A DNA stretch of 14,034 bases from the IMG/VR virus record IMGVR_UViG_3300009983_000002. The stretch is one strand, 5' to 3'. Under the pieces are notes generated by a model, which had not been told where the DNA came from, ran no database searches, and was given only the letters and a program-made list of their open reading frames with translations. This stretch comes from a virus. Lineage: Duplodnaviria; Heunggongvirae; Uroviricota; Caudoviricetes. This document shows, piece after piece, positions 12,305 through 14,034 of the stretch (the first letter of the stretch is position 1; every line of letters starts with the position of its first letter). A program made the translations under genes and the position numbers.

Positions 12305-12525
12305 TCGTCAAGGCCCTGATCGAGTTGAAGGCCGCGAGCCCGCCGGGCGTTGGCCCCCTCTACTACACCAAGGGCCCCTCTGGGCTCTTCGGCTGGACTT
12401 CCGTGGCCCAGGACGCCTTGGGGTTCGAAAGCCTCCACGATGCCCAGGCCTTCATGCAAGAGGGTTTTCTCGTCGGAGTCGCCGAAGCCCGGGAACACAA
12501 GTTTCTGGACGTGCCACCCCGTTGA
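12301..12525 (+). CDS. Hypothetical 74-aa protein
   Basis: ATG 12301 overlaps the previous stop (ATGA). It is in frame with the 12124..12525 ORF of the track. Sequence begins MIVKALIELK and includes LYYTKG..GWTS..DALGFES. Confidence 0.62.
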   Translation: MIVKALIELKAASPPGVGPLYYTKGPSGLFGWTSVAQDALGFESLHDAQAFMQEGFLVGVAEAREHKFLDVPPR

Positions 12526-12550
12526 CAACATGGTTAATCTGTGGTAGAGG
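12522..12550 (+). promoter_or_regulatory. Putative sigma70-type promoter P2 (TTGACA-N17-TAGAGG, preceded by TGn)
   Basis: Perfect -35 at 12522-12527 and an AT-rich spacer. The -10 at 12545-12550 lacks the final T and doubles as SD GAGG. Holin ATG lies 6 nt later. Confidence 0.5.
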
Positions 12551-12556
12551 TCGGGG

Positions 12557-12859
12557 ATGGCCCAAGCCCCGGTCCCCACTGGATTCCTCCCCGAGCCCCG
12601 TTGGCTGTTTCGCCGCATTCTCACGTTTGCGGTGATCATCTACGTCGGCCTGATGGTCGGCTTCATCGCCCACGTCCTGGCCGCCGCCGGGGCCACGATG
12701 GCGCTCCTGACCCTGGCAATCGCCCTGGTCATCCAGTCCACGATCCTCCAACTGATCTACCTGATCGCCCCAAGCGCCGAATACGTCCGTGCGATCTCCA
12801 CGGTTGTCGAGGCCGCCCGGGGCGGCGACGTTGAGAATCCTCCGGCGCAAGGCACATAA
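12557..12859 (+). CDS. Probable holin
   Basis: 100 aa with two long hydrophobic segments (ILTFAVIIYVGLMVGFIAHVL; ALLTLAIALVIQSTILQLIYLI), an RR before the first, and a polar C-terminal tail. Lies immediately upstream of Rz/Rz1. Confidence 0.65.
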   Translation: MAQAPVPTGFLPEPRWLFRRILTFAVIIYVGLMVGFIAHVLAAAGATMALLTLAIALVIQSTILQLIYLIAPSAEYVRAISTVVEAARGGDVENPPAQGT

Positions 12860-12864
12860 AAAGT

Positions 12865-13272
12865 ATGACTTTCTCCTTCCTCGCCCCAGTGCTGAGCTTC
12901 TTCAGCAACCCCCGCGTCCTCGTCATTCTGGCCGTCGTCGGCCTCCTTGGCGTGATCTACGTCCGGGATACCCAACAAACGGCCCGGCTCGAAGCCCAGG
13001 CCGCCGTTGTGGCGACTTTGGAAGAGACCGTGGCGCAGAGCACCGCGAAAATTGAAGGCCTCCAGCGGGCCTCTGAGGCCCAGCAAGAGGCCAATGAAGT
13101 AATCTCCCAGCGGCTCGCCGAGCGGGTCGCTTTTGAAAGGTCCGTAAATGCGCTCATCCGTGACATTGATCGGGCGGGTCCGTCTCTTCCTGACGGCGCT
13201 ATCCGCGATCTTACTCATGAGCGGCTTGGCGTCCTGCGCCGGGACGCCGAAGCCCGTTATCCCGCCCGTTGA
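12865..13272 (+). CDS. Rz: Inner-membrane spanin (i-spanin)
   Basis: 135 aa: N-terminal TM (VLVILAVVGLLGVIYV) followed by an Ala/Glu/Gln-rich coiled coil. Overlapped at its 3' end by a lipoprotein gene. Confidence 0.85.
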   Translation: MTFSFLAPVLSFFSNPRVLVILAVVGLLGVIYVRDTQQTARLEAQAAVVATLEETVAQSTAKIEGLQRASEAQQEANEVISQRLAERVAFERSVNALIRDIDRAGPSLPDGAIRDLTHERLGVLRRDAEARYPAR

Positions 13273-13495
13273 GTTTTCGGCTCCCGACATCGAGCCGAAC
13301 ATCCTGACGTGCGAGTTCGCGCCGGTCCCTCCAGGGCCCGGGGCTAGCGAAGCCGAAGCCGAGGTCTACAAGGCCCAGCTTTTCGCCGCCTGGGAATCGT
13401 GCTTCGGCAATCTCTACGCCGTTGGCAACGCCTTGAACGCTTGGCGGGTCTCCGTTGGTTTGCCGCCAATCGAGTTCCGCGACGCTCCGCGTTAG
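13148..13495 (+). CDS. Rz1: Outer-membrane lipoprotein spanin (o-spanin), overlapped type
   Basis: SD GAAAGG 7 nt before ATG 13148. Signal peptide ends in lipobox LAS-C (Cys30), followed by a Pro-rich mature part with two more Cys. Overlaps Rz by 125 nt in another frame. Confidence 0.85.
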   Translation: MRSSVTLIGRVRLFLTALSAILLMSGLASCAGTPKPVIPPVEFSAPDIEPNILTCEFAPVPPGPGASEAEAEVYKAQLFAAWESCFGNLYAVGNALNAWRVSVGLPPIEFRDAPR

Positions 13496-13532: not shown

Positions 13533-13575
13533 AAGAAAAAGGCCCCAGGGGAGTAGCCCGGGGCCTTTTCTTTTT
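13533..13575. terminator. Bidirectional intrinsic terminator
   Basis: AAGAAAAA-GGCCCC-a-GGG-gagtag-CCC-GGGGCC-TTTTCTTTTT: a GC stem with a T-tract on both strands, located between convergent units. Confidence 0.88.
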
Positions 13576-13746
13576 ACTCGGTCATGGGTGTGGTAAGGCC
13601 CATGTTGCGACCGGATCACCAACCTTTTTCCAGGTGACGGGGAGGCCGGAGCCCCGCATTTACTCCCGAGAGAACAGTCGCGGGATGCGACGTTCTAGCG
13701 ATCAGGAGCCACCCTACCGGGCGCTTAACCCCGGCGTTTGTCTCAT
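13533..13746 (-). ncRNA. Candidate structured small RNA (~214 nt), family not recognised
   Basis: Has its own promoter (13753-13780) and terminator. Five consecutive hairpins precede the terminator: 13716-13735, 13662-13709, 13639-13655, 13615-13638 and 13579-13613. No ORF longer than 25 codons follows its ATGs. Confidence 0.55.
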
Positions 13747-13752
13747 GAGCAC

Positions 13753-13780
13753 AGAGTAGCAGGTTCTGTGCCGCTGTCAA
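13753..13780 (-). promoter_or_regulatory. Putative sigma70-type promoter P3 (TTGACA-N16-TACTCT with extended -10 TGn)
   Basis: The - strand reads TTGACA gcggcacagaacctgc TACTCT gtgctc ATG. It starts 3 nt after the RNR stop codon. Predicted +1 is about 13746. Confidence 0.68.
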
Positions 13781-13783
13781 GCG

Positions 13784-14034
13784 TTAGCGAATGGGGCAGG
13801 CCCCGGTCGCACACTGATCGCCGAGTTCGATTTCATCGACGGTGTCGGTCCCCGTGAAGTCGATGGGCTTGAGATACGCCGCGTAGATGCGGAACGTCTC
13901 TTCGTCCACGACTTCCTGCGGCAGGTAGGCGTAGCCCAAATCCTGAGCGGTCTTCGTCGGATCGTTGCGGAGGATGAAGGAGACGCCGACGTAGGTGTCC
14001 CAGTTTTCGAGCAACCACGAAACGATGTCTTCGA
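13784..14034 (-). CDS. nrdJ: Class II (adenosylcobalamin-dependent) ribonucleotide reductase, C-terminal end (5' part outside window)
   Basis: Frame is open to the window edge (EDIVSWLLENWDTYVGVSF...LPQEVV...). It ends in CATGACPIR, matching the C-terminal redox Cys pair of monomeric RTPR-type enzymes (CEGGACPIK in Lactobacillus leichmannii). Confidence 0.85.
   Translation of the reverse strand, partial: EDIVSWLLENWDTYVGVSFILRNDPTKTAQDLGYAYLPQEVVDEETFRIYAAYLKPIDFTGTDTVDEIELGDQCATGACPIR

Follow-up and report, generated by a model that had tools for sequence, protein, structure and literature searches.

The window analyzed in this work (the whole 14,034-nt stretch of DNA) is part of a 32-kb IMG/VR fragment, and the same phage has also been assembled as an 85-kb ENA contig. 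On the basis of gene order and best matches, this phage is placed with the phiCbK/DSS3P8/Lacusarx-like siphophages of Alphaproteobacteria. Its genes are arranged in the order rIIA/B, SNF2 helicase, PolA, RecD, dNMP kinase, ThyX, HTH, and RNR, after which come the converging lysis and tail genes. The nrdJ stop codon (13784, - strand) is separated by 288 bp from the Rz1-like one (13495, + strand), the largest gap in the contiguous gene calls that were checked over ~40 kb of this phage (the runners-up being 216 and 202), which confirms the claim of an earlier, sequence-only reading that a non-coding gap of this size is unusual here. The neighbors that it had named, a ribonucleotide reductase on one side and a lysis cassette on the other, were also recovered, as nrdJ (PHROG 367) and Rz1/Rz, respectively. 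The features of the region are listed below; the sister phage is the second species in which a homolog was found.

12865..13495, + strand: Rz-like gene (12865-13272; PHROG 739) and overlapping Rz1-like spanin gene (13148-13495), converging on the terminator
13533..13569, no single strand: bidirectional intrinsic terminator of 12-13 bp, with 12/12 pairs kept in the sister phage, 3 of them by double changes
13533..13746, - strand: predicted non-coding RNA of ~214 nt, its putative +1 placed by promoter spacing; the sister form has 183 nt
13749..13771, no single strand: 7-bp inverted repeat over the promoter; kept in the sister phage with one compensatory change, the loop being longer by 2 nt there
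13753..13758, - strand: -10 hexamer TACTCT, TG-extended, with a 16-nt spacer; TAnnnT kept in ungapped register
13775..13780, - strand: -35 hexamer TTGACA, invariant in the sister phage, with no change listed in a soil relative
13784..14034, - strand: nrdJ, 3'-terminal part (a class II ribonucleotide reductase gene, 683 aa in full), the upstream neighbor

The Rz1-like protein was assigned from the overlap of its gene with Rz and from its lipoprotein-like N-terminus; neither this protein (13148-13495) nor the putative holin (100 aa, window 12557-12859) matched any PHROG family, and no endolysin was recognized in the window beside them, where relatives have an amidase. A second promoter-like element (window 12522-12557, + strand; TTGACA, 17 nt, TAGAGG) ends 6 nt before the putative holin ATG and is kept in the sister phage and in the relatives' locus L165, which suggests a leaderless lysis-gene mRNA. 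The phage also encodes a T4-type RNA ligase, a HAD phosphatase and kinase, an SspB-like protein, and a YAcAr protein (L276 6522-9012, 14035-14989), and no tRNA was found in the ~64 kb of it that was examined, unlike in Lacusarx.

From these features, the unit looks like a stand-alone, moron-like non-coding RNA cassette with its own promoter and terminator, located where the replication arm meets the lysis arm. The promoter, which had been described as near-consensus, has a perfect -35 and a 16-nt spacer, both retained in the sister phage, and a TG extension, but its -10 matches the consensus at 3/6 positions only, and for this reason it was not listed by the scanning tool. In the sister strains the -10 reads TACGCT and TAGGCT, with TTGACA-N16-TAnnnT preserved, and within the 32-kb record the promoter of the RNA unit is the sole intergenic match to TTGAC-N-TAnnnT. 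The inverted repeat lying over it (a T.G variant in locus L162) may be an operator dyad or, alternatively, a hairpin of nrdJ read-through RNA. The terminator that had been proposed to end the unit was found again in the sister phage and is flanked by U-tracts on both strands; its C-rich loop (13556-13548, CUACUCCCC, 9 nt) is invariant while 4/12 stem pairs change.

A coding function was also considered. A leaderless mini-ORF at 13746 was rejected, its ATG being ATC in the sister phage, as was a 54-codon TTG frame (a small protein or leader peptide), which acquires an early stop and a frameshift there; no ORF is common to the two homologs across the RNA unit. In two RNA-labelled runs (assembled contigs; X5 and X8), the genes on either side were present but the unit itself was represented by short fragments at most, probably as DNA; no transcript of it was seen, and these contigs speak neither for nor against its expression.

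The homolog in a sister phage

The sister phage was found through cluster members of NrdJ (89% identical) and Rz. Alignment of its intergenic region with that of the window needs no gap between the -35 and nucleotide 49 of the RNA, and the region is closed by the same terminator; a covariance model built from the window alone gives it 67 bits (E about 1e-15). The homolog is 183 nt long and ~64% identical, whereas four-fold sites of nrdJ are 61% identical; as judged from this comparison, the RNA sequence has drifted far, near the rate of synonymous sites. The Rz genes of the two phages (window 12865-13272 vs. L159 2740-3147) are much closer (93% nt identity, 85% at four-fold sites) than the nrdJ genes (82% and 61%, respectively), which points to a recent exchange of lysis genes.

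Two strains of the sister phage differ at 1 position in 184 nt of the RNA, and this difference is a GAAA/GCAA swap, i.e., from one GNRA tetraloop to another. Four-fold differences between the same strains amount to 3/39 in Rz1 (P = 0.018 vs. the 1/184 of the RNA) and 11/89 at the nrdJ end, although this test of strain-level diversity is confounded by recombination, as Rz shows only 2/84. We regard these counts as signs of purifying selection on the RNA unit.

Predicted fold and its support

All of the stems listed in the sequence-only reading are present in the sequence where it had placed them. The expectation that the folding energy would beat shuffled controls holds for the whole region (z = -3.88, reached by 0/200 shuffles), but this is mostly due to the terminator: once it is removed, z is -1.6 for this phage and close to 0 for the sister phage. 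Since the z-score reflects mostly the terminator, the case for a real structure rests on the comparison with the sister phage and not on energy.

In this comparison, 21/23 pairs of the helices predicted from the window alone are kept in the sister phage vs. 16.6 ± 1.5 with redrawn substitutions (P = 0.0035, in a test using an alignment fitted to the structure); with a structure-blind alignment allowing register slack, pair retention is not significant (P = 0.3), and identity runs between the two homologs are no longer than expected by chance (P = 0.22). In the consensus model, 13 pairs changed on both sides vs. 0-2 when the partners were slid. Read as - strand RNA, seven variable pairs are G-U in one of the phages; + strand RNA would have A-C at these pairs, and the alternations thus favor the - strand as the RNA strand. 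The covariation test in relatives' nrdJ-Rz1 intergenic regions, proposed in the sequence-only reading, thus gave one sister phage keeping the promoter, the terminator, and most stems, but it remains a two-sequence result, with only two species compared. Altogether, we consider the evidence for conservation of the predicted structure good, but not conclusive.

The string of hairpins drawn from the window needs correction: most of its stems are kept in the sister phage, but the fourth and the innermost ones fail, and a three-way junction is favored by the comparison. The helices of the revised model (all on the - strand) are as follows:

13716..13735: P1, 5' hairpin; 5/5 core pairs kept, one changing from G-C to G-U
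13632..13714: PA helix (13714-13710 with 13636-13632), predicted by RNAalifold; it closes the three-way junction from which P2 and P3 emerge
13662..13709: P2, long hairpin whose internal loop holds an invariant GAUCGC (13703-13698); 5 pairs show double changes when the fitted alignment is used
13638..13656: P3, a 5-bp stem, invariant, capped by a 9-nt loop
13619..13649: putative H-type pseudoknot, P3 loop (13649-13643) with 13625-13619, across an A-rich linker (13631-13626)
13579..13613: P5, with an invariant CAAC (13607-13604); 4/5 pairs kept, 2 double changes

The PA helix has 5/5 pairs in both phages; both partners are altered in 3 of these pairs and a single partner in the other 2 (nominal P 0.03; P about 0.04 in a post-hoc scan), and its probability in single-sequence folding is low (0.005 and 0.15). 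Its formation excludes the previously drawn GUCACC/GGUGAU stem, of which the sister phage loses 2/6 pairs and which is less well supported than PA; hence, in the favored model, the junction of PA, P2, and P3 replaces the fourth stem of the earlier one. The AUGGG/CCCAU inner stem did not survive the comparison either: it is absent from the sister phage, the inner hairpin (13603-13584) being an insertion private to this phage. The tip of P2 is shortened in the sister phage to a GNRA tetraloop (the one polymorphic between its strains), while P3 offers no covariation evidence because its stem never varies. Invariant bases cluster in the junctions and loops of the core (GAUCGC, UCC..CU, UGGUGA, and CAAC).

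The strand freed by PA could pair with the P3 loop into an H-type pseudoknot, which, on balance, we narrowly favor. The pairing comprises 7 bp in this phage, whereas that of the sister phage has 6 bp and a bulge (duplex energies of -10.6 and -6.7 kcal/mol, respectively), but it hinges on the placement of a 1-nt gap, and in the other register only 3/5 tested pairs hold. With two pyrimidines as loop 1, loop 2 lacking, and an A-rich loop 3, the candidate would have the geometry of a textbook H-type pseudoknot. With the pseudoknot left aside, the junction model (-82.1 kcal/mol) and the earlier hairpin model (-82.4 kcal/mol) are about equally stable.

Some strands of the model have other potential partners. 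In both phages, a 7-bp pairing is possible between the 5' strands of P3 and of the terminator (-15.3 and -12.9 kcal/mol), strands can also be exchanged between P1 and P3, and the unit points at Rz1/Rz, so that an attenuator or riboswitch-like element might be imagined, timing lysis by conditional antisense transcription into the lysis cassette. We consider this quite improbable, as runs of G and C make chance pairings likely, the terminator has 12-13 bp, and no known aptamer matches.

Distribution and the genomic slot

DNA-pattern scans of IMG/VR and GTDB genomes, which find only copies keeping the chosen bases, gave no further homologs, and metagenomes gave the sister phage only. No homolog of the RNA was found by blastn of phages and plasmids, nor by a covariance-model search of the relatives' loci and 24 whole records (including phiCbK, Rogue, Lacusarx, DSS3P8, RcXuper, MD18, and Gurke), in which weak matches in phiCbK and Gurke proved to be ordinary terminators overlapping genes. 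A ~45-nt motif beginning with the same CGGGG..CCCCG hairpin and ending in GGAAGGACCCG was met in four unrelated viral contigs (L174 9576, L180 9941, L186 9621, and L189 2799) and was rejected as a homolog, since it resembles a cos-type sequence near a terminase gene.

In DSS3P8, RcXuper, and two metagenomic relatives, the same slot holds a repressor-like gene and an integrase, mostly with a tRNA-derived attP, and in another lineage it is empty. A tRNA-Arg(CCG) or a tRNA 3' fragment lies beside the integrase (attP) in the slot of the relatives (L165 10279-10355; L156 9900-10000).

This occupancy by integrase, repressor, and attP is in line with the view that there is no independent functional RNA here, but only a bidirectional terminator together with an nrdJ 3' UTR or a decayed lysogeny relic, whose GC-rich stems partly agree by chance. 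The non-significant z-scores of the body, an identity equal to that of neutral sites, the structure-blind test, and the length of the identity runs agree with such a view. It is opposed by the kept register of the promoter, the many double changes, the G-U bias of the - strand, the GNRA-preserving polymorphism, and the low strain diversity, and the unit showed no similarity to the intergenic DNA of the relatives' lysogeny regions. We therefore hold it to be unlikely, and estimate at about 0.8 the probability that the unit is a real functional RNA.

Possible roles and comparison with known RNAs

Judging from the two homologs, there are two invariant sets to be explained, i.e., the core bases and the 9-nt C-rich loop. 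Under the mechanism that we tentatively put forward, the primary-sigma RNA polymerase of the host would transcribe an RNA of ~185-215 nt from about position 13746, possibly with some read-through from nrdJ. The RNA would fold into the 5' hairpin, a compact core (the three-way junction and the probable H-type pseudoknot), the CAAC hairpin, and the terminator; the core would confer nuclease stability and may bind a protein, and the invariant C-rich terminator loop would be a seed pairing with G-rich, Shine-Dalgarno-type sequences of mRNAs, probably those of the host, and altering their translation. Pairing by C-rich loops has precedents in CcnA and RNAIII and has been proposed for the cuckoo RNAs (PMC8959179; PMC4615179). 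By this analogy, the reading that we place first, though at well below even odds, is a stable scaffold whose anti-SD-type seed would act in trans on mRNAs; against it, most of the invariant bases lie in the core, where a seed does not explain them, and the C-rich loop occurs once and differs from the cuckoo motif.

Comparison of the two phages revealed no conserved phage mRNA target. The holin mRNA, for which a pairing of -17.6 kcal/mol was calculated in this phage (0.5% of random windows; about 100 comparisons) and over whose start the terminator loop also pairs (in this phage only), was rejected: neither pairing exists in the sister phage, which lacks the hairpin involved in the former, and the pairing site would be absent from a leaderless holin mRNA because it overlaps the -10 of the holin promoter. 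The tract GGUGAUCC was likewise rejected as a complement of the 16S 3' end, since the sister phage has only GGUGA there and no start codon lies at SD distance.

Nearly as likely as the trans-acting seed is a protein-binding decoy or scaffold, in which the tertiary core titrates a host protein (e.g., a defence nuclease or a toxin) and the terminator loop is incidental. Decoys of this type are exemplified by pseudo-ToxI and the RNA anti-CRISPRs. This reading accounts for the clustering of invariant bases in the core junctions and loops and for the moron-like layout in a variable slot, and the T4-type RNA ligase and polynucleotide kinase/phosphatase of the phage hint at an RNA-directed host defence. 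However, the unit contains no repeats of the type III antitoxin style and matches no CRISPR repeat in Rfam, and none of the genes carrying a Pfam label over the ~64 kb examined is a reverse transcriptase, TnpB, or Ro60.

Among the non-coding RNAs of phages, which are under-catalogued, several have proved to be anti-defence or host-takeover factors. The feature described here is real and the predicted RNA uncatalogued, with a better fold than the one first proposed, but its distribution is narrow and its function putative; its reach is so far small (two phage species). The two natural variants are ready-made compensatory mutants, with which the fold, nuclease resistance, and self-cleavage are testable in vitro without the uncultured phage.

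The Rfam search (Rfam 15) that had been proposed was run and returned no family at the gathering threshold, the best scores, 21 bits for BjrC68 and 22.5 bits for ar14, coming largely from the end with the terminator, and ARAGORN detected neither a tRNA or tmRNA cloverleaf nor a tRNA-like domain in the unit. The original claim of an undescribed, structured, phage-encoded RNA is thus supported by conservation in the sister phage, the lack of a conserved ORF, and the lack of an Rfam match at the gathering threshold, but the fold given with it was partly wrong and the regulatory role is putative.

The predicted order of strands in the core, i.e., a three-way junction with the loop of the last hairpin probably pairing downstream of the closing helix, is that of the class 1 flaviviral xrRNAs (PMC8374639), and xrRNAs also stop RNase J1 (PMC8374639). 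A roadblock of this kind would block 5'-3' decay by RNase J, so that nrdJ read-through RNA or the primary transcript is trimmed to a stable 3' RNA starting at ~13714. Nevertheless, the P2-P3 junction has 5 nt in this phage and 6 nt in the sister phage, compared with 0 or 1 in class 1/2 xrRNAs, which speaks against membership of these classes; neither the base triple nor a threading of the 5' end through a ring, which in xrRNAs has 15-16 nt, was identified, and the unit is an sRNA-like gene of a DNA phage, with a terminator and a promoter of its own that makes trimming unnecessary. For these reasons, the roadblock seems improbable to us. Rather unlikely, too, is the bolder idea that the junction and pseudoknot form a bacterial-side counterpart of the viral exoribonuclease-resistant RNAs, or a single-unit host-defence decoy, i.e., a new functional class replacing a lysogeny module.

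HDV-like/theta ribozymes, which occur in phages (PMC10879173), share with the unit a G-initiated 7-bp helix followed by G and a UCC in a loop. In both phages PA can be lengthened to 7 bp, and the helix then begins with G and has GG or GA behind it, as in an HDV-like P1 (6-7 bp, starting with G, then G), and an invariant CAA lies downstream, so that a deviant fold cutting 5' of G13714 could be envisaged. A strict HDV descriptor found no match in the unit, however; under a relaxed one, P2 reaches only 3-4 bp (a P2 of >=5 bp after the catalytic C being expected), in registers that differ between the phages, P3 and its loop are of the wrong size (3 bp with the consensus loop being expected), there is no adjacent tRNA, and no Rfam ribozyme matched at E up to 10. 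Self-cleavage is accordingly very improbable, and the unit was not included among the HDV-like/theta ribozymes.

The cuckoo/ar14 RNAs (RF02344; PMC4615179) resemble the unit in the alphaproteobacterial host class, the terminator of their own, and a C-rich, anti-SD-like loop (CUACUCCC here vs. CCUCCUCCC), and this terminator loop is the source of the weak ar14/cuckoo match in both phages, which recurs at 20-22 bits, below the gathering score of 58.8. These RNAs consist, however, of 2-4 adjacent identical hairpin modules with the CCUCCUCCC loop, whereas the phage-encoded RNA has one such loop with a one-base mismatch, its other C-rich tracts are paired, and it possesses an additional three-way-junction core; membership was therefore rejected. 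In the same phage, between rIIB and peptide deformylase (L272 13820-13900), there is a GC-rich hairpin of 12 bp whose loop, UAUCUCCUU, is anti-SD-like, with a second CUCCUUCCUCC tract ahead of it; this might be a cuckoo-like RNA derived from a 3' UTR.

CcnA of Caulobacter crescentus (PMC8959179) is comparable in length (about 182 nt), alphaproteobacterial context, and C-rich loop, and its CCCC loop acts on GGGG near start codons (PMC8959179); it is, however, chromosomal, located at the origin, and CtrA-driven, and the likeness is drawn with no claim of homology. A further parallel is offered by the structured orphan RNAs known from phages (more than 10,000 candidates, PMC10690425), which are likewise intergenic and covarying, with no assigned function, and the RNA described here is best filed within this known category as a new family with, so far, two members.
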